In this document: positions 4,473 through 30,205 of the stretch, one piece after another | Layout: each line of letters begins with the position of its first letter | Numbering within the stretch: the stretch's first letter is position 1 | Assembly: GCA_027451365.1 (NCBI GenBank) | Contig: DAIDJN010000058.1 | Coordinates: 64,001 to 128,000, forward strand | Direction: 5' to 3' | DNA length: 64,000 bases | Origin: Phycisphaerales bacterium | GTDB lineage: Bacteria > Planctomycetota > Phycisphaerae > WQYP01 | The notes under the pieces: model-generated | Database searches by the model: none | The model's input: the letters and a program-made list of their open reading frames with translations, nothing else | What the model was told of the DNA's origin: nothing | Program-made: the position numbers and the translations under genes

Positions 4473-4855
4473 TAACATTGGCAGATTCCGGCAATAACAC
4501 GAATTGAAGCGCGTCTGGGAAGGTCATCCTGACTGGGATACGTTGGAGACATTTGCTGGCGCTTGCGGGATTTGAGAAGAGGCCTTTCCGTCAGCCCAAA
4601 AGGCCCGCTTTGGTGTTGTCTGTTTTTCACTTTCTAAAATCTTCCGTTCTTATTCTGGTAGCGCGTTCACTTGCGCGCTGGTGGTTGGGGCGTGCAGGGA
4701 GCGGCAATTGAATGCCCGGTCCCTGATGAATTGTTGAATGCGGCAGATCATGACTTTTCACGTAAGTTTGCCATGTAAAATTAGTTCAAAGACATTCGGA
4801 GAACGCGTCCGATAACACAAACAGTCGATTCCGCATCTTTCCGCACCCGCTCCGC

Positions 4856-5329
4856 GTGCATACCATCTTAATGATCTGGGAGAGAGTCGGCTCTCTTTTG
4901 GAGGCTTTTGTCATGTCTGGGAATATTACCAGTTATTTCTGGCTGGATTTCGTGAATCTGCTGCGTTTTCTCCGCTGGCGCTGCTTTTTTGCGGCTGTGG
5001 GCTGGATTCCGGTATTTTTTCTTTCCGTTCCACTTTCTCATGGCCCATGGATGATGTTGACCATGGTACTGGGCGCGGTGGCGGGGGCCTTCATTGGCTG
5101 GAATATTGCTGACGGTGCGGGCGACCAGGTCGCCTTCAGTGGGTTTTTCCTTATTTTTTTGCTGGTGCTGGCTTCCTGGGTCACGATATGGGGAGCCGAT
5201 TTTATACTGCAATCGCTCGCGCATCTGGCCTTTGGCTGGCAATTTAACTTTGGCCGTTGGATGACGCTGGCCAGCGCCACTTTTTTCAGCCTTATATCCG
5301 CCGCCAAAAGTGAATTGATGGACGACTGA
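4856..5329 (+). CDS. Hypothetical integral membrane protein (about 4 TM helices; start uncertain, possibly a downstream ATG)
   Basis: Hydrophobic 157-aa ORF filling the intergenic space; GGAGG lies before an internal ATG (MSGNITS). Confidence 0.55.
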   Translation: MHTILMIWERVGSLLEAFVMSGNITSYFWLDFVNLLRFLRWRCFFAAVGWIPVFFLSVPLSHGPWMMLTMVLGAVAGAFIGWNIADGAGDQVAFSGFFLIFLLVLASWVTIWGADFILQSLAHLAFGWQFNFGRWMTLASATFFSLISAAKSELMDD

Positions 5330-5680
5330 TAGAACCGTTGTCTGTGCCATGGCGTGCGCATGCCCGGTTTGGTGCAAAGAGTATCAGGTTGGCGGAGCGC
5401 CACTTTTACGGGTGCGCTGACTTGCCATTAAGCGAACGCCGACACCGGTGAAAAACAGCTCGGCAGTGGTCATAAGAGCGGTCGTTGCAATTTACAGGTA
5501 AATAAGAATCGCGCAAAAACGCGGTTTGGCTATGGATGGCGATAAATAATAGTGGTTGGGAATGGCGTTCAGTCCGCCCGCCGACCGGTTATACGCGGTT
5601 ATGCGTAGCGGCATCCGTGCAGTTCACCTGTGGGCCAGTTGGTTCGTAATTTTACGTATCGAATTATCTAAGTATTCTAT

Positions 5681-5709
5681 TTGACTTTCGCGCGGCCATA
5701 ATTTATTCT
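5681..5709 (+). promoter_or_regulatory. Candidate sigma70 promoter for the giant PEP-CTERM gene
   Basis: TTGACT-N17-TATTCT, about 410 nt upstream of the ATG at 6122. Confidence 0.4.
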
Positions 5710-6121
5710 TTGGCTCGACGACGGTCGAGTTCGTGACTGGTGCAGGCCCGGTCGCTTGCGGTCGTCCGCAAACAGATAGTTTTTCCGGGAATTGAGAGCA
5801 AGTTGCGATTTTCAATTCCCACCATTGCCACGGATCGGCTCGCATTCGTATGTGTAAATCAGTTTAGGAGGCAGGGTGCAACGTACCGCCGCGGATTCGG
5901 TGCCACACGGGAGCAGACGCATGTGTACATGCCTTATGTTTGACGCAGCGCACCGGGCGGAAGCTCAGGGCCATCTGCAGGCGCCGCACGGCCCATCGCC
6001 TTGCACGCCAGAAAATGTAAAGGCGGCTGTTGTCTATACGGCGCGTTGTGTTCCAACTTGAACATATATGATCAGTGCCTGTGCGGTTCTAAATTACCAG
6101 CCTACCCAAAGAGGTAAAAAA

Positions 6122-15100: not shown

Positions 15101-18100
15101 ACGCCCGGCAATGGTACGGTCAATCTTACCGGCACTCTGGTGAACGCAGATGTCGGCGGTAACGGGCCGAATACCTTGGATCTCGTGACTGGCGGAACGC
15201 CCTGGTATTTTGATGGCGGCACCATCAAGGGGGGCATACTGATTGGCGAGGATGCCAGTGGCAATTCCTATCTTTCCCTCAAGCAATCCGGTCAGGGCAC
15301 CCTGCAGAATGTGACGCTGGGAAGCAACCTTAGCTTAGGTGGCAACTCCAGTACCTTGTATATAGCCAATTCGACCGGCGCGGGAAACCAGAATGGCATC
15401 ACCGGAACCGGTCAACAGGTTGTCATTAACGGCAGTTACGAATCCATCAGCTTTTCCGATGCCACAGATGGCGGCGGTAATGCCATTGGTCAGACACTGG
15501 CGGATCTGACCATAGACCTGGCGGGTCAGAATGCCGGTCTTTCTACCGGCACCAGCCTGACGGTCGCTTCCAATGCCACCATCGAAGGTACCGGCTACAA
15601 CTATTCCAACTACTATCAGAACACTATTTCCGGCGGCAGTCTGGCGAACCTGGGCAACATCAATGCCGGTTCGGCCTCTGCCACCGGCTATCTGATTGTT
15701 GAACCCAAAACGTTCACCAATCAGGTGGGCGGAACGATGATTGCATTTAATGGCTCAACCCTGCAAATCGGCAGCGGCGCTTTCGGCACAACCTGGTCCA
15801 ATGCCGGAACCATCACCACGGCCGTGACTGCGGGGTTGCAAACCGCGCCGGGTACAGCTGTTATCACACTTGATGACAACTGGTCGAACACAGGAACAAT
15901 TTCCGCCAGTGCCGGTGACACCATTAACTTTGGTGGAAAATTCCATCCCGCAGATGTCGGTCTTGCGACCGATCTTGGCACCGGGGCCACACAGGGAACG
16001 CTTTCGCCCAGTCAGGCCACGCTGAATCTCACCGGAACGCTGATTAATTCTGATACCGGTCCGACCGGTTCCAATACACTGAATTTCCCGGTTGGGGGAA
16101 ATATCTGGAATATGACCGGTGGCACTGTTCTGGGCGGATCGGTCATCGCGCAGGACAATTCGGGCAACCAATTCCTGAATATAGCGACCGGATCATTCCA
16201 GAATGTGTCGCTGCAAAGTAATCTGGCTCTGACTCCCAATTATTCCAGACTGACTATTCTTAACAGCGCTGGGACGGGTCTGCAAAATGGACTCGTTACC
16301 AGTGGCCAAACCATTACTCTTTCCGGCTATTTGTCTGAATTGGCATTTACCGACGCAACTGATTCACTGGGCAATCCGATTGGCCAGACGCTGGGCAATG
16401 TCACGATTGATTTTACCAATAGCACCACCAGCACCCTGGCCGTTGGCGGAAGTTTGACACTTTCGGGCAACACCGTGGTTAACGCCCTGGCCGGAACCGG
16501 CAACGCCAATGGTGGCGTGATTAACGGCACCACGTTGATCAATGATGGCAGCATGAATGCCGGTTCGGCTGGCGCTGCTGGTTCGTTGGAAATTGTTACA
16601 ACCAACTTCACCAATTCCCAGACCGGTACGCTTACAGCCTACCCCAATTCTGTCCTTCAAATTGAGCCGACTGCATGGTCCAACGCCGGTGTCATTACCG
16701 GTTCAACCGGATCCACCATTGACCTCGGCGGCACATTCCATCCCGCTGATATCGGCCTGGCGACCGACCTTGCCGGCGGAGCCGGCCAGGGAACCTTCAA
16801 TACCAATGGCGCGCAGGTGAATATTCTGGGTACGCTGGTCAATGCGGATGCAGGCGGTACCGGCGTCAATGATCTTGTATTCAATGCGGCCAGCGGTGTT
16901 TATAACTTGGACGGCGGCACCGTTCAGGGTGGTGCCATCAGTATGGCTACGCAGACTTCCGGCCCGGGCGCGGGCGATGGATACCTGGTCTTCAGCGGCG
17001 GTACTCTGCAGAATGTCACTTTGAACAGTGATCTGATCCTGAACAATGCCGGCCAGCCCGCAATTCAGAATATCAGTTCACTGAACATCAACAACACGCT
17101 GGCCAACCAGGTTGGTTTAAACACCAATGGTCACAATATCATTCTTTCCGGCACCAGTGCAGCGCTGACCTTTAATGATGTGGTGAATACCGGCACCTTC
17201 GCAATTGCAGCGCAGACTCTGGCCAATACCACGATCACCCTGTCTGGAGCCAATGCTACCATTACCGGGACACAGGAGCTGAATTTTGCGTCCACGGCAA
17301 TCGTTAATGCCGTGGCCGCGAATAGCGGTAATATTATCAACGGCGCCATTGTCGATACCGGCGCCCGGGTGAATGTCGGCTCGGCAACGCCTACCGCAAC
17401 CACTCTTTATCTGGATCCAACAACGCTGACCAACAGCGGTGTGATTACTGTGTTTAATGGCGACCAACTGGTGTTTGGCCTGTCCAACGGCACATCTGCC
17501 AATAAGACGGGCGGAATCATTCAAACCCAGACCGCCGTAGCCGGTTCCGGTGCAGGTTCGGCGATTCTCACATTCGTTGGTCCGCTGACCAACTCCGGTA
17601 CCATCACCGCGGCCACCGGAGATACCATCAATCTTGAAGGTTCATTTACCGCTGCGGATGTGGGGCTTGCCACCGCAGGCCCGCAGGGAACCTTTACGCC
17701 AAATGGTGCTACAGTGAATTTCACCGGGACGTTGGATAACACTGGCAATGCTCTTCTATTTGGTCCAACGACAGGCGCGTGGAATATGTCTGGCAATGCC
17801 ACGATTATGGGCGGTAGCCTCTCGGCCAATATGCAAAGCTCCGGCCCTGATGCGGGACAACCATTCCTTGTTATTACCGACGGTACTTTTCAGAACGTCA
17901 CAATCAACAGTGATCTGACTGTTTCCGGCAACCTTAGTTTCGCCAGCACTTCCGCCAACACCACCGGCGTGGTGGATAGCGGCCATACCATTAATATTGT
18001 GGCCGCCGGCGGCACGCTGACCTATGTTGAACCGCGTGATCCGTTTTCTGGCCTGGCACCGGCGCAAACCCTGAATTCCACCGTTAATTTGCTGGGTGCT

Positions 18101-18802
18101 GGATCTACCATAAGTGGTTCGGCTGGCACGGCCCTGACATTGGGAACGTCTGCTGTCATCAACGGTCTGGCTGCAAATTCCTCCAATACCTTTACCATGA
18201 CGGCGCTGACCAATAACGGCCAGATTAACGCCGGATCCGCAGCGGTTACGAACAACACCCTTACTGTGAATGTGGTGCAATTTGCCAACAACGGTTCCAT
18301 TACGGCCAATACCGGTTCTGCGGTTAACCTGGTGTTTGACCCGGCCGCATCGTGGACCAACATGGGCACACTTTCTGCGGATGTCGGCGGTACAATTAAT
18401 GTAAAGAACAACGATGGTTCACCCCTGAATCTGATTCTTGGTACCGGCAGTACCATTGATATACAGATTGGTTCAGGAGGTCAGAGTGGATTGATTGACG
18501 TGCTGAATGGTTCGCTCACCATTGATCCGAATGTCACGCTGAATTTAAGTCTGGCACCCGGTGCTGTCGTAAATGGGCCATACACTTTGTTTAATTTCAC
18601 AGGTTTGCTTGGCGATCATTTCGCTACGGTGAATTCCAGTTTTGGAACGGTGTCCTACAACGCCGATTCGATCACTATAAACGGAGCCAGCACGCCGGAA
18701 CCCGCGGCGCTGGCGCTGTTTGCCGGTGGCAGTGCCCTTTTGCTGATCGGTCGGGGCAAACGCCGCAATGCAAAACGCAACCACGTTCGCGTTGCATGTT
18801 AA
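6122..18802 (+). CDS. Giant repetitive PEP-CTERM-sorted surface protein (beta-strand/beta-helix-like adhesin or S-layer-like), ~4226 aa
   Basis: Signal peptide MKSKMVNRLMAAATAAMFGTFLGHTAQA after a GAGGT SD. G/N/T/S-rich body with about 12 repeats marked by WSNTGTI...GDTINLGGxF. C-terminal TPEP + hydrophobic helix + basic tail (RGKRRNAKR) matches a PEP-CTERM sorting signal. Confidence 0.9.
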   Translation: MKSKMVNRLMAAATAAMFGTFLGHTAQANSPTVNNVDWILAGSGNWNAAGTNWSGGIIPNNTSTNVYDVSLDLADGGIYNVTIPSNASYNVDGLTLSNANAALTIAANGILDISQPDNNGASGTLSVQQGDFTLNGTLANSVLSVGVGGTFSSNSGTFENVVLGSNLSVGSYQALNVTDSLNNSYGLNAAGELITLNVGAGLVFTDTFDPKFNRFVPNILNGTMDMTGYNNYLTAQNGPTELAGTVNVLAANGTEYMNGNGLLWNNGYINVGSNGTIADAVSGSTLYINASAFNNTGNITVFNSSTLNATAFTNSGTVATAASAGIQTGTGSAIMDFKGDWSNTGTIEAAAGDTINLGGAFNPQDIGLSTMAGVTNGAFSPDGATVNISGTINNTGNNLNFAAVIGPWNLNGAVITDGTLTVQNGAGAQDIKILNASVQNTKLGSNLIIQNNGYSGGLTVNNTVANPLGLDFNGYNITLAGSYASLTFNATYDRVFAAYVPESVNGIINLAAYQSQLNGNQIAIFNSAINSYSTSGTNYIGGGTITNAGVVRVGSDGTLGNTVTGDTLTINSNNFTNAASGTIAVYNGDILNFNSYGGTTNAGLITTAGAATLQSGTASATINFSDGWSNTGTIRATAGDTINLGGTFNAADIGIAGATGQGAFTPNGATVNLSGTMNIQGGVATFDAAHGLINLGGGTFENGTVVAQNNTGTQYLAISSGTFQNITLGSNLSVAGSLYLTGTTENTNELNFNGYAVTLTGSGSVLNPYDVSVNGVYVPEVLSGTINLAGNNSSVNAYQGPLTLAGTLNALAPGNFNFIGGYSGPVTNTGLIYVGSAAIGGNAISGAALTVRPTFINAGTMTAFNSDFLNLNSNTWSNSGVIQTGVAAGLQAGPGSATLNIGGAGGNWSNSGRIVAAAGDTINLGGTFNAADIGIAGTAGEGTFAPNGATVNLTGTMNIQGGTATFDAAHGQMTLSSATIENGTLVSQDSRGNSYLNFGSATFQGVTLGSNLLVNGNNSTLTINGTLAVPQGLNIGGYAVTTSGSATNIVVNDADQYLSSGLVYSAQMLNGTINLAGAADTLTSQNSLTLAGTINALAADSYDTISNVAGILTNSGSLNGGSATVSGTALNIAGSAFVNSGTITQFAGDTLSLGSTVWSNTGTITGTGVGGGGINFGGQFTAADIGIAGTAGEGTFNPNGAKDVLNGTMNIQGGTATFDSAHGVFIFTGTIENGTLVTQVIGGNQLLQINGGTFQNVTLGSNLALGGPNDPNAITLTIANTASDAAGLVLNGNTVNLLGNSATLNYVDASNGSDVAQSIDSGVTNLSGKDAAINTNGTLTLEQGAVINSLAGNHGENIINGNSFVNQGLINVGSPTVTGNTLEILAAGFTNATTGVITVYNGNDLNISSANWINDGLIQTSGAAGLSSAGGASLTFNGSWTNNGQIKVTAFDVVNFGGSQQTGTGTISVAGYTPVQLTNTGSIAIGSATQNVSAFINAANFTNSSTGKLEVFTGSELQIGDIYTNSNSTNSGLIETSAAAGDTSASGATLTFAGNWSNTGTIAATYGDTVNLTGTFSMASIGLNGGGTQGTFTPGGANINLYGNIDQQGGSTLNLGQTGNPAHIGTLTIEKHGVYTLENGATLANAVLSIASGGGSSSYTGTVSVAGYANATFQNVTIGSLPTGSGIGLSNTGSTLTVANTVANPIGLNLGGTNVSLGGQNDALAFRDASNGGSDVAQTLDDMTTITGAGDTITTNGLLTLAGTVNVIIPVGNNKSGEAFLSGATIVNSGNINVGFDGTTSNTTANNILVINPVSFTNNSTGVITVYNSNVLDIAATNWSNAGTIQTAAAIGDTPAAGSGAVLEFNGSWTNTGTIRLTSFDEVVFGSNPGVGSTGTIGTAGQIVQASNAGKIDVGSAGTTGLYTLISTNTFTNSSTGKIEVFNGNTLLLGDPYGYPTTWSNAGTIASATAAGDQTGGGATIYFYGNWSNSGSIAASANDSVILGGNFTTKDIGMAAGGGSFTPGGAVVTLSGTMSLQGGAVSFGAALGAINLTGTLENGTLSSGTDTNGNEYLSVGAYSSGTFQNITLGTNYALVNNGSTLNVNNSLANGVGLDLGGKTLTLSGQNTTLRINNTLTNPNTLQNGTLTLSGAGAQLYAQSQMTLGATLTLNSTSTGGNGNFINGFGVVNAGNMNVGYDSNSGTTVTGNALAIYAGFTNVGTVTVYGGNNLFIGEPANLNGAGNYASTWSNSATIQSNDSFGGTSGITLQGNWSNTGTIVANPGDLVTLAGIFHPADVAMANDGSANATFNMNGTTTTAGAVVNITGTLVNSDAGASSSSNTLYFGAVGSSKSSTGSGNYTSNGSWNLGASNGSGGYLAGTIQGGTIYPQDSTGAQYLNIINGVFQNVTLQSNLNLNNANSSLTISNAGYVSGSPNSSTGTYDGLVFAGTGNYSINISGQNASLIYSDATYSGGGSVPQTIASGKINVTGTTDTISIHNGPVTLAANASINVYGTGTYVPSTSGSGYDGSGNYSGYYIPPSATINGSGSFSNLGNINVGSDGSGHNYSGIKLTIDPANFTNLGTITVFGGSGNYGANTLQIGNGNDSTTWTNKGTIQTNDADHGGAFITLTDNWSNTGSIVLSGSDRIELGGFFHPSDVAMANNGSTNATFIANGAAVNITGTLINSDGNGPNTLNFNGPGTSVSGTSTSNGTWNLSGGTIIGGVININAESNGNPYLTIGSGMLENATVNGNLKVGGMLTLANVALNGNIDLFAADSGISIFNSIANPQGLVSASPFTISTVYGGTINFNDVTDANGNPIGQTLANATINLAGQTYYSAFIRGGNGTLTIASSTVINGEVAGQGYYGNITYGNVDMLGSSIVNYGAINAGVGVSYQGLTVGSSIFVNHGIMTVEGGNNQLAFTAYGLPISLINAADGTITASGYGSDIFIDANWSNLGKIALGSGDTIELGGTFHPADVGLATDLPSGTPQGTFTPGNGTVNLTGTLVNADVGGNGPNTLDLVTGGTPWYFDGGTIKGGILIGEDASGNSYLSLKQSGQGTLQNVTLGSNLSLGGNSSTLYIANSTGAGNQNGITGTGQQVVINGSYESISFSDATDGGGNAIGQTLADLTIDLAGQNAGLSTGTSLTVASNATIEGTGYNYSNYYQNTISGGSLANLGNINAGSASATGYLIVEPKTFTNQVGGTMIAFNGSTLQIGSGAFGTTWSNAGTITTAVTAGLQTAPGTAVITLDDNWSNTGTISASAGDTINFGGKFHPADVGLATDLGTGATQGTLSPSQATLNLTGTLINSDTGPTGSNTLNFPVGGNIWNMTGGTVLGGSVIAQDNSGNQFLNIATGSFQNVSLQSNLALTPNYSRLTILNSAGTGLQNGLVTSGQTITLSGYLSELAFTDATDSLGNPIGQTLGNVTIDFTNSTTSTLAVGGSLTLSGNTVVNALAGTGNANGGVINGTTLINDGSMNAGSAGAAGSLEIVTTNFTNSQTGTLTAYPNSVLQIEPTAWSNAGVITGSTGSTIDLGGTFHPADIGLATDLAGGAGQGTFNTNGAQVNILGTLVNADAGGTGVNDLVFNAASGVYNLDGGTVQGGAISMATQTSGPGAGDGYLVFSGGTLQNVTLNSDLILNNAGQPAIQNISSLNINNTLANQVGLNTNGHNIILSGTSAALTFNDVVNTGTFAIAAQTLANTTITLSGANATITGTQELNFASTAIVNAVAANSGNIINGAIVDTGARVNVGSATPTATTLYLDPTTLTNSGVITVFNGDQLVFGLSNGTSANKTGGIIQTQTAVAGSGAGSAILTFVGPLTNSGTITAATGDTINLEGSFTAADVGLATAGPQGTFTPNGATVNFTGTLDNTGNALLFGPTTGAWNMSGNATIMGGSLSANMQSSGPDAGQPFLVITDGTFQNVTINSDLTVSGNLSFASTSANTTGVVDSGHTINIVAAGGTLTYVEPRDPFSGLAPAQTLNSTVNLLGAGSTISGSAGTALTLGTSAVINGLAANSSNTFTMTALTNNGQINAGSAAVTNNTLTVNVVQFANNGSITANTGSAVNLVFDPAASWTNMGTLSADVGGTINVKNNDGSPLNLILGTGSTIDIQIGSGGQSGLIDVLNGSLTIDPNVTLNLSLAPGAVVNGPYTLFNFTGLLGDHFATVNSSFGTVSYNADSITINGASTPEPAALALFAGGSALLLIGRGKRRNAKRNHVRVAC

Positions 18803-21390: not shown

Positions 21391-21431
21391 TGCCACACCC
21401 AACACAATGAGGCCGCTGGGGATCGAACCCA
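21391..21431. repeat. Left att site (duplicate of the tRNA-Lys 3' end plus 17 nt of downstream sequence)
   Basis: TGCCACACCCAACACAATGAGGCCGCTGGGGATCGAACCCA, identical to 30073-30113. Confidence 0.96.
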
Positions 21432-21598
21432 CCACTCCCATAGCCTTATCATCGGGAAATACGCAAGGTTCCAAAGTTAGTGAGCCATCTGTGATACCAT
21501 TTGACCCGGATTTAGACGCCATAATCAAGTCATGGCCGACCCTGCCTGAACCGATCAGGCTGGCCATTGCGGCATTGGCCGGGACTGGTGCGAAATGA
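21407..21598 (+). other. Stranded C-terminal segment of the integrase (IntC), in frame with the integrase across the att core
   Basis: Begins MRPLGIEP, the same peptide as integrase residues 436-443, at the same offset (16 nt) in the repeat. Continues for 55 aa to ...DPDLDAIIKSWPTLPEPIRLAIAALAGTGAK. Confidence 0.75.
21490..21501 (+). repeat. Candidate integrase arm-type site (TGTGATACCATT)
   Basis: Same 12-mer as the tandem pair at 29936-29959; lies about 60 bp inside the left att. Confidence 0.7.
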
Positions 21599-21792
21599 GC
21601 AATACCAATTTACAAATTCGCAATGCCGACGATTTACGAAAATACTTCGCAAATGCGGACCCGAAAGACGTGGCGGCACTTTGGGAGGTTATTCGGGCTT
21701 GGCCGGCAATGCCGCCAGGTGTTAAGAAAGCGATTTTGTCGATTACATTGATTGATTGGGAGGCCGCGCGCAAGCTGGCGGCTAAAAAATAG
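21595..21792 (+). CDS. Small protein resembling the IntC tail (W-P-x-[LM]-P helical motif)
   Basis: 65 aa; ATGA overlap with the IntC stop. ALWEVIRAWPAMPPGVKKAILSI aligns by eye to DLDAIIKSWPTLPEPIRLAIAAL. Confidence 0.7.
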   Translation: MSNTNLQIRNADDLRKYFANADPKDVAALWEVIRAWPAMPPGVKKAILSITLIDWEAARKLAAKK

Positions 21793-21853
21793 GATCAAAT
21801 ATCGCGTTGCCACCGGCGATAACAGGTGGCATATCCGTGTTGGAGTGTTTTTT

Positions 21854-22084
21854 ATGGTTGCCAATGTTGAAAACTTTCTGCGAGCGGTTAAGCGTAACGG
21901 CTTTATGCTTTCGCCCGTGGTGCCGGGGTTGGCCAGCTTATCGCCGGTTGGATGGAAATGTGAGCCAGGCGATTTTTGCGTCCCTTATGTGATGGTGCGG
22001 CCAGCCGACCTTAAAACGCCAGAAGCTGTCATTCGCAAAATCCAATCCCGTTTTGCGAATCGCGAGGCATTAACCGCCGCGTGA
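21854..22084 (+). CDS. Hypothetical protein (76 aa)
   Basis: GGAG SD upstream of the ATG at 21854; co-oriented with neighbours and followed by a terminator-like hairpin. Confidence 0.55.
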   Translation: MVANVENFLRAVKRNGFMLSPVVPGLASLSPVGWKCEPGDFCVPYVMVRPADLKTPEAVIRKIQSRFANREALTAA

Positions 22085-22106
22085 CATTACAAGGCCCATA
22101 GAAATG

Positions 22107-22156
22107 AAGCCTGGCGTTTTTTTTCTTCGCGTTGCGGAGGGGCGCCGGGCTTTTTT
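22107..22156 (+). terminator. Intrinsic terminator-like hairpin with a long loop
   Basis: AAGCCTGGCG...CGCCGGGCTT followed by a T-run. Confidence 0.5.
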
Positions 22157-22177
22157 CCTTCTATACAAGGCGTATCC

Positions 22178-23104
22178 GTGAAGATTATTGGTGTAACGAT
22201 TGGTACAGGCGGCCAGTTTCCGGCGATGGCGGAATTGGCCGCAAAGCGGTTTGAGGCCGCAACCGGCCTTGAATGCCGGCTCTTAAAACCATCCGACTAT
22301 TTCCCGCGGGCAGGAAAACTTGAATCAATGTTAGCTCGCTATAAGACGTTTGAAGCGTTTCCTGACGCGGATGCCGTGGTCTACTTTGACGCCGATCTGG
22401 CCTTTGTCCGCAAATGGAACCCTGTTGAATTGTTTGCCGCAGAAAGTCGGCTGATGATGGTTGTTGACGGACATTGGGACGGTCTTGAGGCTGAAGCAAG
22501 AAAACTTGGGATGCCCTTGACGGACTACCATAACGCGGGCTTTCACCTGGCCAACCGTGAACATCACGCGGAATTGTTCCACCGGTTTTTGAAATGGTTT
22601 AATGAAATTCCCCGAATGGAATACGGCGATCAATCCGCGTTTAATCTTTTCCTGCAAATGACGGGCACGCCAGTTGCAGATTTGCCGGCAACGTATAATT
22701 TTTTTGCCCATGAATGGCCGAACGCGAAAGAGCAAATTGACCCGATGGGGGTTATTGGATGGCATTGCGCGGCGAATGAAAAGCCTTTATTCCTTGAAAT
22801 CGCTTCTTTGGGTGTAAGAGAGTGTTTTAAGCCGGATCCGGTCCCGGACGGTCTATGCAATCGCCGTTTTTGGTACAACTACGGCGGCGCATCTGACCGC
22901 ATCATGGTATTAAGCCCTGACGGGCGAATTGTCCATGGATGGGGCGGCTACGAGATGTTTTGGTGGATGAAAAATGGTGATCTGTTATTCTCTAACCATA
23001 AACGAAAAACGTGCAGTTTCGTTCGAGTAGGCGATGGATGGGCGGGCCACTGGTTGGTGGATTCCCTCCCGGCGTGCACACTAAAACCAGTCTTGCTGCC
23101 ATAA
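22178..23104 (+). CDS. Glycosyltransferase, GT-A fold (GT8-like), cargo gene
   Basis: VVYFDADL (DxD), YHNAGF and DQSAFN motifs typical of GT8, plus an extra C-terminal aromatic-rich domain. Confidence 0.75.
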   Translation: MKIIGVTIGTGGQFPAMAELAAKRFEAATGLECRLLKPSDYFPRAGKLESMLARYKTFEAFPDADAVVYFDADLAFVRKWNPVELFAAESRLMMVVDGHWDGLEAEARKLGMPLTDYHNAGFHLANREHHAELFHRFLKWFNEIPRMEYGDQSAFNLFLQMTGTPVADLPATYNFFAHEWPNAKEQIDPMGVIGWHCAANEKPLFLEIASLGVRECFKPDPVPDGLCNRRFWYNYGGASDRIMVLSPDGRIVHGWGGYEMFWWMKNGDLLFSNHKRKTCSFVRVGDGWAGHWLVDSLPACTLKPVLLP

Positions 23105-23114
23105 GGTGGTGCGA

Positions 23115-23768
23115 CTACCTTGAAACTTCAACCGTGAGGAAACCTGAATCGTTGGCGAGATTGCCGGTGTAGTTATACATTTGCATTTTAAGCCTGCCGT
23201 CTTGGCTTGCCCGCAGGTGTGCGTAGTCGCCTATTTTGAAGGGTTTGCCGTTTCCGATCTTGCCCTCAAGGTAGCCGTGAAAAATATGGTTCACAGGATC
23301 ATTCAATCCATCTGGTCCGCAGGCATACCGCAGATGCTTTCCCCAGGTGCTCCAACGTCCGCTGGCGCTGATCGTCACTGATTCGCCTTTCCGCAGGGAA
23401 ATTGTGGTCTGCCAGTTTTTTGTAGCATAGATGCGAAACTTCAATCCGTGAGCGATTTGGGGTTGTACGGCCGCGATCCATTTCTGTATCAGTACTGCGT
23501 CTTTCAAATTTCCGCGTTGCATGACGTGTTTTTCCGCAATCTTGAGCCGCGCGACTTCCTGGCGACGGGCCGCTGCGACGGCATCCTGATATTTCTGGCG
23601 GGCCACGCGGATCGCGATCCGGGCACGATTGATCGCGGCTAAAGCCGTGATGGAATTTGGCAATGGAAGCGGTGGCGGATTAACGGGCGATGTCCAGGCA
23701 TTCAGTATGGACGACAGGCAAACAACCGTGGTGAGTGAAACAACAACAACAATTCGAGCAAACTTCAT
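23115..23768 (-). CDS. Exported protein with coiled segment and C-terminal LecA/PA-IL-like lectin domain
   Basis: AAGGAG SD and signal peptide. C-terminal pattern W..T.I.L.KGE.V.I.ASG.W...GPDG...G.L.GKIG.G.PF.IG...DG.L...N..G...V.V resembles PA-IL-like beta-sandwiches. Confidence 0.6.
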   Translation of the reverse strand: MKFARIVVVVSLTTVVCLSSILNAWTSPVNPPPLPLPNSITALAAINRARIAIRVARQKYQDAVAAARRQEVARLKIAEKHVMQRGNLKDAVLIQKWIAAVQPQIAHGLKFRIYATKNWQTTISLRKGESVTISASGRWSTWGKHLRYACGPDGLNDPVNHIFHGYLEGKIGNGKPFKIGDYAHLRASQDGRLKMQMYNYTGNLANDSGFLTVEVSR

Positions 23769-23885
23769 GACTGGTTCTCCTTGATTCGCAGAATTCGCAC
23801 TGGCTAAAACCAATCGTATCACGCGCGGGCGCCGCGTGCAAAAGCGTTAAGGGCCGTGCGAAGCTAATTTTTGCGATATATAGGT

Positions 23886-24098
23886 ATGGAAGACCGTGTC
23901 CGCATAATCCTGTCATGCCCGCGAAGCCAGGGGGCGTTTATTCCGATTGAACCGGCTGCGCCGGAGCCGCCAGAGACGCCAGATTATTCCGATGATGAAC
24001 TGGAAATTTTAAGGCTCTCAACTCAAAGGCGTGCCGACGCCGGCGAACCATCCGCAATAACCCGCCGCATGGCCGATCTGGCTTATGCCGGCCAGTAA
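23886..24098 (+). CDS. Hypothetical small protein
   Basis: Short ORF divergent from the lectin gene; no motif recognised. Confidence 0.3.
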   Translation: MEDRVRIILSCPRSQGAFIPIEPAAPEPPETPDYSDDELEILRLSTQRRADAGEPSAITRRMADLAYAGQ

Positions 24099-24213
24099 AA
24101 CCAAGTCTAAAAACGCGCATGCGCGATTCTGCGATTGAATAGCGATTAACCAATGTAAGCCAACGCACAGTGCCTTGAATCGGCACCGCTGGCTTGTTTT
24201 GGAGAATCGAACC

Positions 24214-24414
24214 ATGGAACGCGAGGAACAGCCCGAACTTCAAACGCTTCTGACCCTTGAGCAATCCGCACAGGTCTTGCAGGTAAGCCTGCGGACGATT
24301 TGGAAGCTGATCTCTACGGGCGAACTCCCCAAGCCGTTGCGGATCGGCCATAGCCGCCGATTCCGGCGTGCCGATCTGGAAAACTATATTGAGACCCTTA
24401 CCGCGGCGCGTTGA
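24214..24414 (+). CDS. Excisionase/AlpA-like winged-HTH protein
   Basis: LLTLEQSAQVLQVSLRTIWKLISTGELPKPLRIGHSRRFRRADLENYI; GGAG SD before ATG 24214. Confidence 0.85.
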   Translation: MEREEQPELQTLLTLEQSAQVLQVSLRTIWKLISTGELPKPLRIGHSRRFRRADLENYIETLTAAR

Positions 24415-24475
24415 TTATTCTAAAAAAATAGGCCGTTGGCATCCGACAAAAAACACCAACGGCCATAAAAATCCG

Positions 24476-24664
24476 GAGGCCGCGAAGTTATGCGGTATCG
24501 GCCGCACACTTTTTTTGGGCCTCGTTTCAAGCGGACGCGCACCGGCACCTATCCGGCTGGGCGGTAAACGCTGCGTCTGGCGAAAACAGGAGCTATCGGC
24601 CTGGGTGGCTGCCGGATGCCCGACGCGGGACGAGTTTAAAAAACTGCAAAGTCTGAAAAAGTGA
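24476..24664 (+). pseudogene. Second AlpA-family HTH, apparently lacking its N-terminus/start codon
   Basis: EAAKLCGIGRTLFLGLVSSGRAPAPIRLGGKRCVWRKQELSAWVAAGCP is AlpA-like. The only in-frame start is a GTG at 24368 inside the previous gene, and it would read through a hairpin region. Confidence 0.5.
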
Positions 24665-24725
24665 TATTAAAAAAAAGGCCGCCAAGTGGACTAAACCTGA
24701 CGGCCTGAAAATTTAGGATAAAGCA

Positions 24726-26783
24726 ATGATACACATTCCTAATGCCACACACAAGTTGAAGGAATCGCTTTGTCTGATTCCGACCGAACTCAAAGAAATT
24801 CAGCAATGGGTTATGTGGCGAATAGTTGACGGGCGAAAAATTCCGTTCACCACCACCGGGCGCTCCGCTTCCTCAACCAAACCTAAAACGTGGGCCAGTT
24901 TTGATGCCGCGATTGCCTCCTATCGGTCTGGCGGATTTGCGGGCATTGGCTTTGTCTTTGCAAAGGATGATCCGTACTGCGGTATCGACCTTGACCATTG
25001 TATAAAACCGGATGGCACACTTGAAGCGTGGGCCGCGAAGATCATTCAAGACTTCGCAAGTTATGCGGAGGTGTCACCAAGTGGTACCGGCGTAAAGATT
25101 TTTATTCGTGGTAAGAAGCCCAGTGCTAAATGCCGCTTCGAGATTAACAAGGCCACCGGCCAGCATATCGAGATTTACGACAGTGGCCGGTATTTCACGG
25201 TCACGGGAAATCGCTGGGCGGATTGCCCATTGGTTATTTCCGATCGGCAACCGAAGCTTAATACTCTGTTCGCAGAATACTTTTCAGGGCAAGCGCCGCC
25301 AGTAACAAAGCCAGAATTACCACCCCTTACTGAGCATGTGAAAAATAATGCTTCCACACATGAGCGGTGCCACAGGTACTTGGACACGATTCCGGGGGCC
25401 ATTTCCGGGCAAGGTGGCCACAACCGGACATTGGAGGCCGCGGCAACATGCTTTCGTTTTGGGCTGTCCGAAAGCGACGCATGGAATCTACTGACCGAAT
25501 TCAATGAACGATGCCAACCCCCATGGAATGAAAGGGAACTCCGCCACAAGTTGGCTGACGGCGAAAAGCTTGTACGGGGCGCCGGCGAATTTGGAAAATT
25601 GCTAGATGGGCGGTCCGAACCAGTAGCCGCGGCACCGAGGCCCACAACGGCGGCGCCCGCAGCGGTTCCGAAAGCTCCCGCGTTGAAGTTTCTGGACGTT
25701 GCGAATTGCCGAAATTATTCCAAACCACAGGCGTGGGCGTTCAAGGGATGGATCCCATCGGGCCTTGTCACGGTTCTGGGCGCCCATGGCGGCACGGGAA
25801 AAAGCATGTTCAGCCTGATCGCGGCTATTTGCTTGGCGGCTGGTCATGAATTCCTTGGCCAACAATGTGAGCCAATAAAGGCGTGCTACTTCTCCGCTGA
25901 AGATGGTCCGGATATTCTTTATCCAAGGATGGCCGCGATCTGCGACGCCCTGGATGAAGACCCCGCAACGCTGGCTGACCGCCTGACGGTCATTGACGCC
26001 GAAAGCAACCCAGTCCTATTTGAGGAAGTCACAACCGGCAAAAGCGCGATGATCACCACGCCGACCTATGCGGCTCTGCTGGAACACATTCAGCAAACCG
26101 GCTGCAAGTTTGTGATCATTGACGGCGCTTCCGACACTTATGATGGTGAGGAAAACGCACGCCGGCAGGTGCGGGCATACATGCGAAGCCTGCGGATTCT
26201 GGCACAGGCAACAAATGCTGCAATCGTCCTACTGGCACACGTCCCAAAGACCAACACACGCGGCCAAAGCACGGAAAGTTATTCCGGTTCAACCGCCTGG
26301 CACAACAGCGCCCGGTCAAGGCTGGCGCTGGTTGTGGATGAATTTGCGCCCGGGATAATTGAACTCCGGCACGAAAAATGCAACGTGGGAAAACTTCAAT
26401 CCGCATTTCAATTCAAGTTTTCAGATAGCGGCATTTTATTACCGGTTGGCCAGTCCGGCGAGGTTAATTCCAACGCCGACAAACAGGCGATATTAAGAAT
26501 AATCATGGAATTTAACGCCCGCGGAGAGACCCTTTACGCCTCGACCGCGTGTGCGCAGAACGCATTCAAGGCAATGGCTGGCGAGCCTGGATTTCCAAAG
26601 AAAATGCGCAAGCCAGCATTCGATAGCCTGATGCGGTCCATGGCGAGAGAGGGTCTTATTCAAATAGAACAAATTCAAACCAAACAGCGGCGATTTGTGG
26701 ACGGATGGCGAATCGCAGAACTGGGTATTGCCGCGATAAATGTAGACCTTGCCACCGGCGAAGTTTTGGAGTCGCAGCCATGA
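24726..26783 (+). CDS. Primase-polymerase (NrS-1-like PrimPol) fused to PriCT-like region and RecA-type/AAA_25 helicase
   Basis: QWVMW, GIGFVF...GIDLDHC, EVSPSGTG and IEIYDSGRYFTVTG in the PrimPol domain; CQPPW..REL; Walker A GAHGGTGKS; Walker B FVIIDG; LLAH and GSTAW motifs. Confidence 0.88.
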   Translation: MIHIPNATHKLKESLCLIPTELKEIQQWVMWRIVDGRKIPFTTTGRSASSTKPKTWASFDAAIASYRSGGFAGIGFVFAKDDPYCGIDLDHCIKPDGTLEAWAAKIIQDFASYAEVSPSGTGVKIFIRGKKPSAKCRFEINKATGQHIEIYDSGRYFTVTGNRWADCPLVISDRQPKLNTLFAEYFSGQAPPVTKPELPPLTEHVKNNASTHERCHRYLDTIPGAISGQGGHNRTLEAAATCFRFGLSESDAWNLLTEFNERCQPPWNERELRHKLADGEKLVRGAGEFGKLLDGRSEPVAAAPRPTTAAPAAVPKAPALKFLDVANCRNYSKPQAWAFKGWIPSGLVTVLGAHGGTGKSMFSLIAAICLAAGHEFLGQQCEPIKACYFSAEDGPDILYPRMAAICDALDEDPATLADRLTVIDAESNPVLFEEVTTGKSAMITTPTYAALLEHIQQTGCKFVIIDGASDTYDGEENARRQVRAYMRSLRILAQATNAAIVLLAHVPKTNTRGQSTESYSGSTAWHNSARSRLALVVDEFAPGIIELRHEKCNVGKLQSAFQFKFSDSGILLPVGQSGEVNSNADKQAILRIIMEFNARGETLYASTACAQNAFKAMAGEPGFPKKMRKPAFDSLMRSMAREGLIQIEQIQTKQRRFVDGWRIAELGIAAINVDLATGEVLESQP

Positions 26784-26808
26784 CCCATAACACCGATTTA
26801 CAGGGTTT

Positions 26809-26931
26809 TGCGCGGAGTGCGCGGACGTTGCGCGGACGCATGTTTGCACGGTCTGCACAAAAAGGTGTGGATGTGGTGTCCCGCTTCTGCGCGGACACAC
26901 ACAGCCTATGGGGTATGGGGGACGTCCGCGC
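26809..26931. repeat. Iteron-like repeats, candidate replication origin
   Basis: TGCGCGGA at 26809, 26818, 26829 and 26888, plus inverted GTCCGCGC at 26924, just downstream of the primase-helicase gene. Confidence 0.6.
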
Positions 26932-27048
26932 GGTCGAAAATCAGGCTTTGATCGGCGAGCTGTTTTGTGAGGAAAATAAGGCGACGCCACCGGCCTTAAA
27001 CATGTGGTATTTTTCAAACGCCGCTTAGGCGGCAGAATAGGAACTCAA

Positions 27049-27477
27049 ATGAGTGTTTCAGAGTTACTGGCGTCCAAACGCGAAGCCGCACAGAAGCCGG
27101 CACGCGGTCGATACTGGACCATGATCCGGAAGGTGGCCGGGAAGGCGGACGTAACCACGGCTGAAGCGGCCGCACTGGCCAACGCGGCCGGTGAAGCTGG
27201 TATTCCGGTTGACCGCATTGATGGCGACATTGCCCGCGCCCGGTCCGTGGCGGACGCGAAAGCTTTTATCGCGGCCAATGATAGCATTTCGCAAAAGCAG
27301 ATTGCCCATGGCGAAAAGCTTCTGGAAATGCAAAACACCGCGGAACAGGCACAGATTGCCTTGGAGAATTTCCGCATTCCGTGGTCACTGGAAAATCAGA
27401 GGCTGACGGCGATTGCCAACCGCCTGACCGAATTTGAAGGCATGATCGCCATGTTCGAAGCGGAAATAACCGCATAA
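27049..27477 (+). CDS. Hypothetical helical/coiled-coil protein (142 aa)
   Basis: AGGA SD before ATG 27049; Ala/Glu-rich helical sequence. Confidence 0.65.
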   Translation: MSVSELLASKREAAQKPARGRYWTMIRKVAGKADVTTAEAAALANAAGEAGIPVDRIDGDIARARSVADAKAFIAANDSISQKQIAHGEKLLEMQNTAEQAQIALENFRIPWSLENQRLTAIANRLTEFEGMIAMFEAEITA

Positions 27478-27490
27478 TTTTCTGGTGTCG

Positions 27491-27552
27491 CCGGCAGGTG
27501 GCAAAGGGTTCTGTTGCGGCTGATTCTGCAACGCCGCCTGCCGGTTTTTTTT
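27491..27552 (+). terminator. Long nested hairpin followed by T8
   Basis: CCGGCAGGTGGC...GCCGCCTGCCGG-TTTTTTTT with an inner stem GTTGCGG/CTGCAAC. Confidence 0.55.
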
Positions 27553-27566
27553 AAGGAAATGCAAAA

Positions 27567-27932
27567 ATGAATCTTGGATTTTTAGATTTTGTCGGGGAGC
27601 TACGCCGGTATGGCATTCAAATCCGGTGCCGTGGCACGAGTTTGCAATATCGGGCCGACCGACGCCGCCAACTGTGCCCCTTGGATATGCTGTACTCGCT
27701 TTTCTGGCGATCCCACGATATTCACGCGGAGATTAGCGGTAATGGGCAATTCTACCGGGAAAGCCCTGATCCGGATGGTTGGCATTCTGTTTCGCCTGAA
27801 AGGTGGCACCGGGAGCTAATTGAACGCGGCATAGGGTGCCTGGCGACATTGATAAACTCGGAACTTGGCCGCCGCAACGCCAGCCACGCTGGCCGCCAGA
27901 CTGGAGCAAGCGGGGCGTCCTGCAAAAGTTAG
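27567..27932 (+). CDS. Hypothetical protein, N-terminus resembling TubC-N docking-domain-like small phage proteins
   Basis: AAGGA SD; ELRRYGIQIRCRGTSLQYRA pattern. Confidence 0.45.
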   Translation: MNLGFLDFVGELRRYGIQIRCRGTSLQYRADRRRQLCPLDMLYSLFWRSHDIHAEISGNGQFYRESPDPDGWHSVSPERWHRELIERGIGCLATLINSELGRRNASHAGRQTGASGASCKS

Positions 27933-28021
27933 CCCCTTGGCCGACTACCCCGCCCAGGACGGTCAAACGGGCCTGTATGGGCGTCTAATAGCGTCATTTT
28001 TGAGTAAAAAGGGTGTAAACC

Positions 28022-28354
28022 ATGGGTAGACCGCAAAAACAGATTGACGCCAGGGCCGTTGGCGCATTGGCAATGGCGGGGCTGTCTAACAGGCAAATTT
28101 CCGAAATTTATGGCATTGGTGAAGCCACAATCCGCCGACGTTTTGGCGCGATTGTCAAAGAAAACAGGCTGGCAATGCGGATTAACCTGCGGCAAAAGCA
28201 AATCGAAACCGCCATGGCTGGCAATACGGCCATGCTGATATGGCTTGGCAAGCAATACCTTGGCCAAACCGATCGGCCTGCGGAAACATTCCCTGCAACG
28301 GTTCAGGTTGTGCACCCGGTCGGGTTTAACTTCAGGAAGGTTGGCCGCAAATGA
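28022..28354 (+). CDS. HTH protein, terminase small subunit-like
   Basis: MGRP start, HTH (GLSNRQISEIYGIGEATIRRRF) and AMLIWLGKQYLGQTD motif, seen in phage TerS-position genes. Confidence 0.65.
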   Translation: MGRPQKQIDARAVGALAMAGLSNRQISEIYGIGEATIRRRFGAIVKENRLAMRINLRQKQIETAMAGNTAMLIWLGKQYLGQTDRPAETFPATVQVVHPVGFNFRKVGRK

Positions 28355-28572
28355 TATTATTCCGGTGCACCAAATGCCGCCAACGATTGCATGATGCGGT
28401 CTGGTACTTTTGCCGGGACTGCCAACGGTCATTGTGTGGATGGTGTGCATACACGATTGACGGGCCGCGTGGTGAGACTGCATTTTGCGAAAACTGCTGC
28501 CGGCGATTGGTGGATAACCTGACCAGTGAATTAAACCGCCGCGAGGAACTTGACAAAGCGGCCGCAGTGTAG
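28351..28572 (+). CDS. Small Cys-rich zinc-finger protein
   Basis: Four CxxC pairs (CTKC, CRDC, CGWC, CENC); ATGA overlap with the upstream gene. Confidence 0.6.
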   Translation: MILFRCTKCRQRLHDAVWYFCRDCQRSLCGWCAYTIDGPRGETAFCENCCRRLVDNLTSELNRREELDKAAAV

Positions 28573-28578
28573 GATAAT
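28550..28578 (+). promoter_or_regulatory. Sigma70-type promoter for the HTH-integrase operon
   Basis: TTGACA-N17-GATAAT, with 7 nt between the -10 hexamer and the ATG at 28586. Confidence 0.6.
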
Positions 28579-28585
28579 AAACTAT

Positions 28586-28780
28586 ATGAAAAACATTGAA
28601 CAGGTTTTGAAGCAGGCAATAAAGGATACCGGCCTGACGCATTATGCCATTTCCAAAGCCACTGGCGTACAAGCCCGGTCACTGGATCGGTTCATGGATG
28701 GAACCCAAAGCCTGCGGCTGGATAAGGCCGCACTGCTGGCAATGCACCTGAATCTTGAACTTAAACGCAAAGGACGGTGA
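28586..28780 (+). CDS. XRE/Cro-like HTH regulator (64 aa)
   Basis: LKQAIKDTGLTHYAISKATGVQARSLDRFMDG...LRLDKAALLA. Confidence 0.8.
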   Translation: MKNIEQVLKQAIKDTGLTHYAISKATGVQARSLDRFMDGTQSLRLDKAALLAMHLNLELKRKGR

Positions 28781-28783
28781 ACC

Positions 28784-30151
28784 ATGCCAAACGTATTCAA
28801 AAGGCGTATCTGGATTGATGCCAATGGCGTCCAGTGTTCCAAAACAACACCGGGGGCCAAGGCTAAGATTTTACCTGACTGGTATTTCCGTGTGATGACT
28901 TCAACGGGCCGCAAACTTGTGCGAGGATATTCTGACAAGGGCGCGACTGTCGCCAAACTCAATGATATGGTCAAACGCGAGGCCCGTGGTGAACAGGGGC
29001 TTGTCAATCCATTTGAATCGCACAATAAAGCACCGCTGTTGGATCACGTCCGGCAGTATGTTGCCGAACTGGCCGCCACGGGCCATGACACGGCCAATAA
29101 CCGCATTGTGGAACTGCGGCTTAATAAAATGGTGTCCGCGTGCGGCTGGAACAGGTTGGTGGATGTTTCCGCGGCAACATTCAGTAAGTTTCGGGACACG
29201 GGCGACATGCTTAAAGCCGCGCCAAAGACCCGCAATGATTATCACCAGACAGCGCGTCAATTCTGCCGCTGGTGTGTTCGCAATGGCCGGATGGCTATTG
29301 ACCCGTTTCAAAGTCTGGCCACCGTCAAAAGCAATGGCGACGTTCGCCGGCAACGCCGGGCAATGACTGATCAGGAAGTCCAGCGACTGCTGACCGTGGC
29401 ACCAGAGCCGCGTAGAACCGTTTACCAAACCGCGCTGCTGACCGGCTTACGCCGTGCCGAACTTGGCCAGTTGCGGCTTGATGATATTCACCTTGACGCA
29501 CCAAAGCCGTTCCTGACAGCCAGAGCCAGCACCACCAAAAACGGCAAGGCTGCGGTTATCTTCCTCCGCGACGATCTTGTTTCAGCCTTGCGACGGTTGC
29601 CGGCACGGACAGATGGGCTGCTGTTCCGCGTTCCAAAAATTGAGACGTTCTATAACGATTTGCGGGCCGCTGGGATTGACCGGACAGACAGCAAGGGCCG
29701 GATACTTGATTTTCACTCCATTCGGCATACGCTTGCGACCAACCTTGGCCGGGCTGGCGTGTCCATCAGAACCGCAATGGAAGTGATGCGGCATTCCGAT
29801 GCCCGCCTGACCACTAAGACCTATACCGATGCCAGCCAGTTGCCCACCATAGACGCGATTGAGTCTTTGCCACGTTGGGAAGTCCATCAGCAGGTGCAGC
29901 AAGCCGTTGCCACCGGCACGGATGGCCAAAAAGTTTGTGATACCATTTGTGATACCATTTACCCCGCACAGTTAGGCGTTTGTACGCATTCAGACGCACG
30001 GTTGACAGTAAATGCCACTGATGACCAAACCACTGTAATACAAGGGGAAAACCTGCAAAACAAGCTGTTTCCTGCCACACCCAACACAATGAGGCCGCTG
30101 GGGATCGAACCCAGGACCCACAGATTAAAAGTCTGTTGCTCTACCAGCTGA
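28784..30151 (+). CDS. int: Tyrosine recombinase/integrase, reading through the att core and ending antisense inside tRNA-Lys
   Basis: Catalytic residues TGLRRAEL (R), TKNGK (K), FHSIRHT (HxxR), MRHSD (H) and KTYTD (Y). Confidence 0.95.
   Translation: MPNVFKRRIWIDANGVQCSKTTPGAKAKILPDWYFRVMTSTGRKLVRGYSDKGATVAKLNDMVKREARGEQGLVNPFESHNKAPLLDHVRQYVAELAATGHDTANNRIVELRLNKMVSACGWNRLVDVSAATFSKFRDTGDMLKAAPKTRNDYHQTARQFCRWCVRNGRMAIDPFQSLATVKSNGDVRRQRRAMTDQEVQRLLTVAPEPRRTVYQTALLTGLRRAELGQLRLDDIHLDAPKPFLTARASTTKNGKAAVIFLRDDLVSALRRLPARTDGLLFRVPKIETFYNDLRAAGIDRTDSKGRILDFHSIRHTLATNLGRAGVSIRTAMEVMRHSDARLTTKTYTDASQLPTIDAIESLPRWEVHQQVQQAVATGTDGQKVCDTICDTIYPAQLGVCTHSDARLTVNATDDQTTVIQGENLQNKLFPATPNTMRPLGIEPRTHRLKVCCSTS
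29936..29959 (+). repeat. Tandem candidate arm-type sites (TGTGATACCATT x2)
   Basis: Exact tandem 12-mer inside the integrase 3' region; a third copy lies at 21490. Confidence 0.7.
30073..30113. repeat. Right att site overlapping the tRNA-Lys 3' half
   Basis: 41-bp identity with 21391-21431. Confidence 0.96.
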
Positions 30152-30162
30152 GCTACGGCCTC
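30090..30162 (-). tRNA. tRNA-Lys (UUU), CCA not encoded
   Basis: GAGGCCG acceptor stem, anticodon arm ACAGA-CTTTTAA-TCTGT, T-loop GGTTCGATCC; 73 nt. Confidence 0.97.
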
Positions 30163-30205
30163 AGAGATTGGGGCACCCGATTGAATTCCCAATCGAGAGC
30201 AACGT

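Follow-up and report, generated by a model that had tools for sequence, protein, structure and literature searches.

The window analysed here, a 64,000-nucleotide stretch of a Phycisphaerales genome, carries a small integrative element whose tyrosine integrase gene (int) is split by the element's own attachment (att) site, such that the chromosome encodes an integrase with one C terminus and the excised circle is predicted to encode an integrase with another, which ends in a short helical hairpin. Judged by comparison with related elements, this circle-only hairpin layout is real, selected and widespread. The element, about 8.7 kb long, has a span of 8,682 bp between the two identical copies of a 41-bp direct repeat (21391–21431 and 30073–30113), which heads the listing of repeat families for the region from 18 to 33 kb. 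The repeat is composed of the 3′-terminal 25 nucleotides (nt) of tRNA-Lys and 16 nt of downstream DNA. Its right copy overlaps the target of the element, an intact tRNA-Lys(TTT) gene on the minus strand (30089–30163) that is the sole TTT copy called by ARAGORN in the assembly, and the distal copy retains the tRNA fragment. Joining the flanks of the element in silico regenerates the tRNA gene.

The int open reading frame (ORF; 28784–30151, plus strand; matches to PF00589 and phrog_1) stays open until it is inside the tRNA gene, whose antisense strand encodes the last 12 residues and the stop of a 455-residue chromosomal form ending in RTHRLKVCCSTS. When the repeats are joined to rebuild attP, the frame is kept and 443 common residues are followed by 55 new ones (21431–21598, plus strand; 48 bits against the tail profile), a linker and then the hairpin (approximately 21512–21583), which gives a protein of 498 residues with the predicted junction peptide GIEPTTPIAL. 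The full R-K-H-R-H-Y catalytic set of the lambda-like class is present (R223, K252, H311, R314, H337 and Y347), is invariant in 75 homologues and lies entirely N-terminal to the junction at residue 443; the catalytic domain ends near residue 363 and is followed by a linker that runs over the P arm and the core. The original prediction of an integrase without a stop before the right att site, of an in-frame exchange of its 12-residue antisense tRNA-Lys end for 55 residues on the circle, and of an active site encoded wholly upstream of the junction is therefore upheld by the reading of the ORF, the joining of the repeats and the comparison of homologues.

An 11-mer, TGTGATACCAT, occurs three times in the whole window, each time inside the rebuilt attP. 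Two copies, at 29936 and 29948, form the tandem arm-like repeats of the P side within the int ORF (29936–29961, plus strand, from repeat comparison), and the third, at 21490, belongs to an arm-like repeat of the P′ side directly 5′ of the hairpin (21490–21503, plus strand), with a presumed arm function. The three copies look like arm-type sites, albeit putative ones, in which case the int ORF of the circle would overlie the whole of attP. Neither these sites within the ORF nor the overlap of the tail's stop codon with the next gene figured in the original prediction. Repeats of at least 10 nt common to both arms are found in 23 of 30 elements, compared with a shuffled mean of 7. An ATGT(D) peptide motif is seen some 15 residues past the catalytic domain and 5′ of the first arm-like repeat, both in the window (approximately 29905–29925) and in homologues.

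The open reading of int into a tRNA gene extends well beyond this element. Among fetched loci with a tRNA 200–560 nt past the catalytic His, 79 of 88 distinct integrase ORFs are open up to the tRNA, versus 16 of 176 control frames, and 26 isoacceptors are represented. Consistently, 105 of 119 integrase homologues end in a peptide that fits a loose pattern typical of antisense-read tRNA. Frame conservation across attP was assessed in elements that possess a hairpin, a repeat that overlaps a tRNA and, extending to this repeat in any register, a recombinase frame (at least 250 residues or 30 bits). The majority of the 100 tail-selected stretches that were fetched gave no pairing of tail and repeat (contig ends, larger elements and remnants). 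The remainder gave 40 pairings, which reduce to 32 elements once seven lacking a qualifying recombinase frame (L358, L291 twice, L362, L315, L298 and L352) and the second pairing of L276 are dropped.

In these elements, where both ends and a recombinase reaching the att site are present, the hairpin lies in the frame of the integrase in 31 of 32 cases, as the predicted switch calls for. The set covers 20 tRNA isoacceptors, with the tRNA in either orientation, and a pair of distant integrase clades, of which the second comprises six elements and is set off by a branch of 2.87 changes per site. Relative to the T-loop, the 29 antisense cases make use of all three phases (14, 9 and 6), and near relatives at one tRNA have changed phase on both sides together (L320 and L359; L039 and L199). 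When an integrase and a direct repeat are the sole selection, 16 of 19 distinct elements have the hairpin in register with the integrase and in neither of the alternative frames; the remaining three are L090 (a stop in the repeat), L212 (an insertion) and L277 (already fused, its repeat being an arm repeat). In a single element a frame match would arise one time in three, but its recurrence across elements far exceeds chance. Indeed, the 28 of 29 antisense elements in frame were reached by none of 200,000 permutations (mean 10.7, maximum 22), a test that overstates independence because of kinship, about 16 independent groups being discerned by eye from the tree.

This kinship is one of several points that weigh against the explanation favoured below. 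The six clade-2 elements share one phase, L367 is out of frame, stops lie inside the repeat of L090 and L362, and L212 carries an insertion. Nine of the 88 integrase ORFs stop short of the tRNA. In the distant relatives L126, L128, L142 and L079, a tRNA-like att core is read through into other tails, which are negative with the hairpin profile and possibly helical. Finally, the ORF whose start overlaps the stop codon of the tail reaches at least 40 residues in 30 of 57 cases, and these ORFs are not one family. As regards L362 itself, its integrase ORF has a stop at the expected catalytic Tyr and its att core a TGA in the hairpin frame, so that decay is likely.

Conservation of the tail is confined to the last 25–30 or so of its 55 residues, the first 25 forming a near-neutral linker over the arm-like DNA repeat. 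The folded helical domain that had been foreseen on the circle form alone is accordingly retained for the last 30 residues or so and given up for the first 25. The conserved part follows the motif L-x2-V-x3-W-P-x-L-P-x3-R/K-x-A-I-L-x-M/L-V, with an invariant Trp. Ratios of nonsynonymous to synonymous substitution (dN/dS) from 13 close pairs are 0.11 for the integrase core and 0.25 for the hairpin, against 0.80–0.86 in the linkers and the core repeat; the linkers are kept open without conservation at the protein level. Entropy at the three codon positions of the hairpin is 1.26, 0.85 and 1.68 in copies chosen by protein profile, a choice that favours a result of protein conservation. Because third positions vary most and every synonymous codon is in use, the hairpin is conserved as protein and not as DNA. 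With this purifying selection, and with 13,368 protein clusters matched by the hairpin profile (50% identity, E up to 0.001), the expectation that the tail has homologues under constraint is confirmed.

Within the host's class, 82 of 121 genomes have hairpins, and a weaker seed profile detects them in 34 of 151 genomes of the host's phylum. They also occur in 7 of 61 genomes of the phylum of a record labelled Verrucomicrobiota and in 1 of 61 genomes of the phylum that labels the record of another relative, L075. Since the hairpin was not found in the 60 other genomes of the latter phylum, the label of L075 may be a binning error, as may the actinobacterial label of L053. A tRNA-like match lies within 300 nt upstream of 56 of 104 hairpin copies and of none of 104 control stretches (strict BLAST against 256 tRNAs). 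No Pfam family was matched by 65 hairpins and no PHROG family by three, and sequence searches of the PDB and a Foldseek search returned nothing significant. With one hairpin as query, tblastn gave no phage match and two weak, unrelated plasmid matches. The ESM Atlas clusters that contain the hairpin are unnamed, Planctomycetota being their most frequent source. The motif is also repeated in tandem in other proteins; two of these, P0123 and P0252 (223 and 286 residues), begin with a signal-peptide-like segment and finish in three to four hairpin copies in tandem, in which the motif may have been domesticated. A weak hairpin-like match in another contig (L002, contig C18, 2712–2846) is followed by an ATGA overlap with a 473-residue ORF, with no tRNA fragment noted.

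AlphaFold predicts a two-helix hairpin (predicted local distance difference test score of 88), in which 10 of 24 columns are at least 80% large hydrophobic residues. Structural comparison with VIA-align gave a best Z score of 4.2 and none of 5 or more (6fxa: Z 3.6, root mean squared deviation 1.7 over 30 residues). C-terminal oligomerisation hairpins such as those of TP901-1 CI, CapH and CFAP410 align with the tail at Z scores no higher than 4.2. A homodimer prediction scored 0.25 against a mark of 0.42 and says nothing either way.

Naturally fused integrases occur, and the longer protein is thus encoded on real DNA. The 8.8-kb contig L075 has a terminal repeat of 129 bp, which marks it as an assembled circle, and its 532-residue integrase ends in the hairpin. 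L276 is a 7.6-kb tandem array in which the inner int reads through attP into the hairpin and the outer int ends in tRNA-Gln. Fusion is likewise seen in L118, L277 and P0271 and in 7 of 120 homologues; when long proteins bearing a canonical hairpin were sought, 132 candidates gave one. In the model of L118, three lambda-like domains, including an N-terminal arm-binding fold, are followed by a disordered segment (residues 404–492) and two terminal helices (495–506 and 509–521); the best Foldseek match of this model is lambda Int (E 1e-11). L118 is a 7.3-kb unit with an intact attP-form integrase in a 49-kb viral contig that has terminase- and portal-like genes; its flanking 2.3-kb duplication (4381–6668 and 11706–13993) would fit either an element that resides in a phage or a repeat created by assembly. 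Different elements stand in tandem at one tRNA in L224 (10000–17693), L291 and L279, where an int abuts the hairpin end of the next element; in L224 the junction of int and hairpin between the stacked elements is out of frame.

At the level of sequence, these data show that recombination state decides whether the encoded integrase carries the hairpin and that frame and hairpin are both under selection. Frame conservation, purifying selection and natural fused forms all speak for the recombination-state switch of the original prediction, and its operation under selection is very probable.

The circle-form ORF is ordered as catalytic domain, an unstructured linker of approximately 120 residues (P arm, core and P′ arm) and hairpin, the latter placed just beyond the last of the arm-like sites. 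When the element integrates into the tRNA, its hairpin ends up at the opposite, distal end and the chromosome is left with a hairpin-less integrase, full integrase being encoded only by the circle or by an internal junction of a tandem array. The hydrophobic columns, the occurrence of the motif in tandem within other proteins and its sharing by distant integrases suggest a self-contained interaction module; the hairpin would then be a small hydrophobic module on a long tether, most likely one that forms oligomers or binds a partner. It would make the circle-encoded enzyme the more active one, the chromosome would keep a damped one, and as a result the integrated state would be stable and the excised state self-reinforcing. 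Activation of this kind, argued by analogy with Mx8, whose extra C terminus is reported to act in this way, is the somewhat likelier mode of action. Excision also has a second consequence for the distal genes, which in some elements include one for Rep: they come to lie behind int, stop codon overlapping start codon, and their expression would presumably be coupled to it. Considered as a whole, an int overlying attP, a circle-only hairpin, an activating interaction and gene coupling form the best explanation, which we consider reasonably probable. More tentatively, and at a little under even chances, the hairpin would be a portable circle-only module, with recombination adding or removing a domain and at the same time coupling a replication operon to the translation of the integrase.

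The hairpin could conversely restrain the circle-encoded integrase, by auto-inhibition or by binding an excisionase or host factor, so that the circle replicates or is packaged before re-integration. A disordered tether of about 120 residues could reach any part of the intasome, the free hairpin copies that follow the tail (window 21595–21792 and L374) are placed as competitors would be, and a module common to two distant clades and found mainly in genomes of the Planctomycetes-Verrucomicrobia-Chlamydiae (PVC) group fits a host partner. However, an incoming circle needs an active integrase, and the sole bacterial tyrosine precedent described in the available text of PMC4701971 goes the opposite way, its shorter form being less active. 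Restraint is for these reasons unlikely.

The gene coupling that we regard as a second effect might instead be the purpose, with ribosomes reaching the overlapped start of the next gene on the circle only and the hairpin being incidental. In the window, the TGA of the tail overlaps the ATG of a 65-residue ORF (21595–21792, plus strand) with a weak second hairpin copy (19.4 bits against the tail profile), and in L374 (18844–19236, minus strand) the ORF coupled to the tail stop is made of two to three hairpin copies; from their sequences, both are possible free hairpin modulators. An ATGA or GTGA marks the tail stop in 23 of 32 elements versus 346 of the genome's 2,018 long ORFs, an imperfect background in that TGA use climbs with GC content. 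Rolling-circle Rep-like ORFs stand at the overlap (L053, L228, L363 and L368) or as first or second ORF (L203, L227, L232, L244 and L224) in 9 of 30 elements, as judged from a scan of 77 ORFs, part of those listed, in which most matches are near or below the Pfam cut-off. Coupling, however, requires neither the invariant Trp nor a hairpin dN/dS of 0.25, 27 of the 57 overlapped ORFs are shorter than 40 residues, and the replication gene of the window lies 3 kb further on, behind a gene on the opposite strand. As the purpose of the layout, coupling is improbable.

Still less probable is a proteolysis switch like that of mycobacteriophage BPs, in which one end of the integrase serves as a degradation tag. 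A C-terminal tag that is lost in an att-dependent manner is on record in the available text of PMC4557955, the chromosomal form has a long unstructured tail, and a folded hairpin could still serve as an adaptor-binding site. Against this, chromosomal ends differ with tRNA and phase, and an ssrA-like end on the circle form is excluded, given that the tmRNA tag of the host has LAA at its end and none of 31 circle-form ends finishes in AA.

The remaining reading, in which accident has fused to int either a DNA motif or a mini-gene that stands on its own at the ends of elements, might draw on an in-frame ATG within the repeat at 21407 (a 63-residue ORF for which a word-based search gave no candidate) and on hairpin database entries that are mostly short stand-alone calls, but it is largely refuted by a frame match in 31 of 32 elements over three phases. 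Also against it are 14 of 30 elements without an in-frame upstream ATG on the integrated end and conservation in amino acids rather than bases; integrated ends would themselves yield short gene calls, and many of these contain antisense-tRNA peptides.

If the reading of the hairpin as a portable circle-only module holds, a switch of directionality and replication would follow from gene topology, this would be the commonest form of integrase control in Phycisphaerae-like bacteria, and free hairpin copies would modulate it; an undescribed domain of about 25 residues would occur across thousands of PVC-bacterial element lineages, shared by two distant tyrosine-integrase clades. The layout accounts for the ‘hypothetical proteins' that form a large class next to tRNA fragments in genomes of planctomycetes, and it makes the hairpin a protein marker for distal island ends. 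Database copies of these integrases represent the truncated form, and whoever takes them as integration tools for PVC bacteria should work with the version encoded across the rebuilt attP.

The rest of the element, of which the genes named here all lie on the plus strand, is in keeping with a small integrative replicon of the satellite type, as its gene content suggests. Downstream of the tail and the 65-residue ORF lies a cargo gene for a family 8 glycosyltransferase (GT8; 22178–23104; PF01501, E 2.8e-9). An excisionase-like helix-turn-helix (HTH) protein (24175–24414; PF12728, E 5e-13; phrog_66) is followed by an AlpA/excisionase-like HTH protein (24368–24664) and a replication protein with primase-polymerase and AAA_25 helicase parts (24726–26783), the latter two with Pfam and PHROG matches. 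A further HTH protein (28022–28354) has weak HTH matches only; we assume from its motif a resemblance to a terminase small subunit (terS-like). A repressor-like small HTH gene (28586–28780; Pfam and PHROG matches) ends 3 nt 5′ of int, and the pair is preceded by the best sigma-70-like promoter of the region (28550–28578; TTGACA-17-GATAAT, 11 of 12 positions), a candidate by consensus match. Elsewhere in the window, a repetitive secreted protein of 4,244 residues is encoded (6068–18802), whose end we take to be a PEP-CTERM-like motif.

The same genome holds related loci. A second element (L006, contig C60, 3042–9282) at tRNA-Ala(CGC) has a different integrase and a tail of the same kind in frame, which extends the protein from 498 to 560 residues; its repeat is 86 bp long and a 22-bp repeat is common to its two arms. 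It also carries a primase-like AAA_25 gene and, just 5′ of int, a gene pair that presumably resembles a RelE/HTH toxin-antitoxin. At a third site (L007, contig C57, 8558–13300), at tRNA-Gly(CCC), a tRNA fragment and hairpin tail are retained and no integrase match was found in the remnant, which holds an apparent AbiE-type gene pair. Short tRNA-like matches cluster in contig C73 (24979–25378), uncalled by ARAGORN, and may be a degenerate tRNA array.

In size and gene content, the elements resemble satellites of the phage-inducible chromosomal island (PICI) type, with lengths of 2.5–18 kb, an int, an AlpA/Xis-like HTH gene, a primase-helicase or rolling-circle Rep and cargo. They differ in that the core genes of the window element all run in the same direction. 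Excised elements often replicate, according to the available text of PMC5704250. Archaeal suicidal integrases (SSV1, pTN3 and pT26-2) likewise have an att site inside the int gene and tRNA targets. SSV1-type enzymes, however, are split before the catalytic domain into inactive halves, as the accessible parts of PMC8371274 and PMC5861418 describe, whereas the window integrase keeps its arm-binding, core-binding and catalytic domains together, with the junction at 443 and the Tyr at 347. The precedent of SSV1 cited in the original prediction consequently falls away (PMC8371274, as far as its accessible text goes), while that of myxophage Mx8, whose geometry fits, stands.

Among other systems, the 3′ end of the integrase overlaps the att site in Dehalococcoides DsiB, which overlaps attL and was suggested to be complete on the circle only (PMC3146451, in the part at hand), and in the streptococcal rumA integrative and conjugative elements (ICEs; compare PMC4701971). 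These are serine recombinases for which the descriptions at hand give no conserved terminal domain, and they are set apart on that basis. In mycobacteriophage BPs, att recombination removes an ssrA-like degron from the repressor (PMC4557955, in the text available), so that there too recombination alters the C terminus of a protein and thereby its state. The BPs switch, however, acts on a repressor through an ssrA-like tag, and the present family ends without one. A search of the full-text literature, with most subscription papers and supplements outside its reach, found no description of a hairpin-bearing integrase family or domain.

The closest parallel is Mx8, in which attP lies inside int and integration swaps 112 residues for 13, with a less active product (PMC4701971 and PMC6070905, in their available parts). 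As far as these descriptions go, it shares with the present elements a tyrosine integrase, an antisense-read tRNA target, catalytic residues upstream and a short host-derived end after integration. Its GenBank protein has the geometry of the window integrase, where the att core likewise lies in the int ORF past the catalytic residues and 55 residues give way to a 12-residue tRNA-antisense end. The Islander work, in its accessible text, cites Mx8 and SSV as exceptions (PMC4383910), and integrases altered by their own recombination are ascribed to ‘very few integrative elements' in the corresponding portion of PMC4701971; in contrast to this rarity, the swapped end is the rule in a large family here. 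The Mx8 tail is unrelated, scoring −0.6 bits against the hairpin profile, and its integrase scores 2.5 bits against the profile of the hairpin-family integrases and sits on a long branch in the tree. By these comparisons, the hairpin family would work like Mx8 but be separate from it, with an unannotated domain of its own. Mx8 is one phage, whereas the hairpin family spans 26 tRNA isoacceptors with one conserved terminal module, and its many natural variants and invariant Trp offer a handle on what the swapped end of Mx8 left open.

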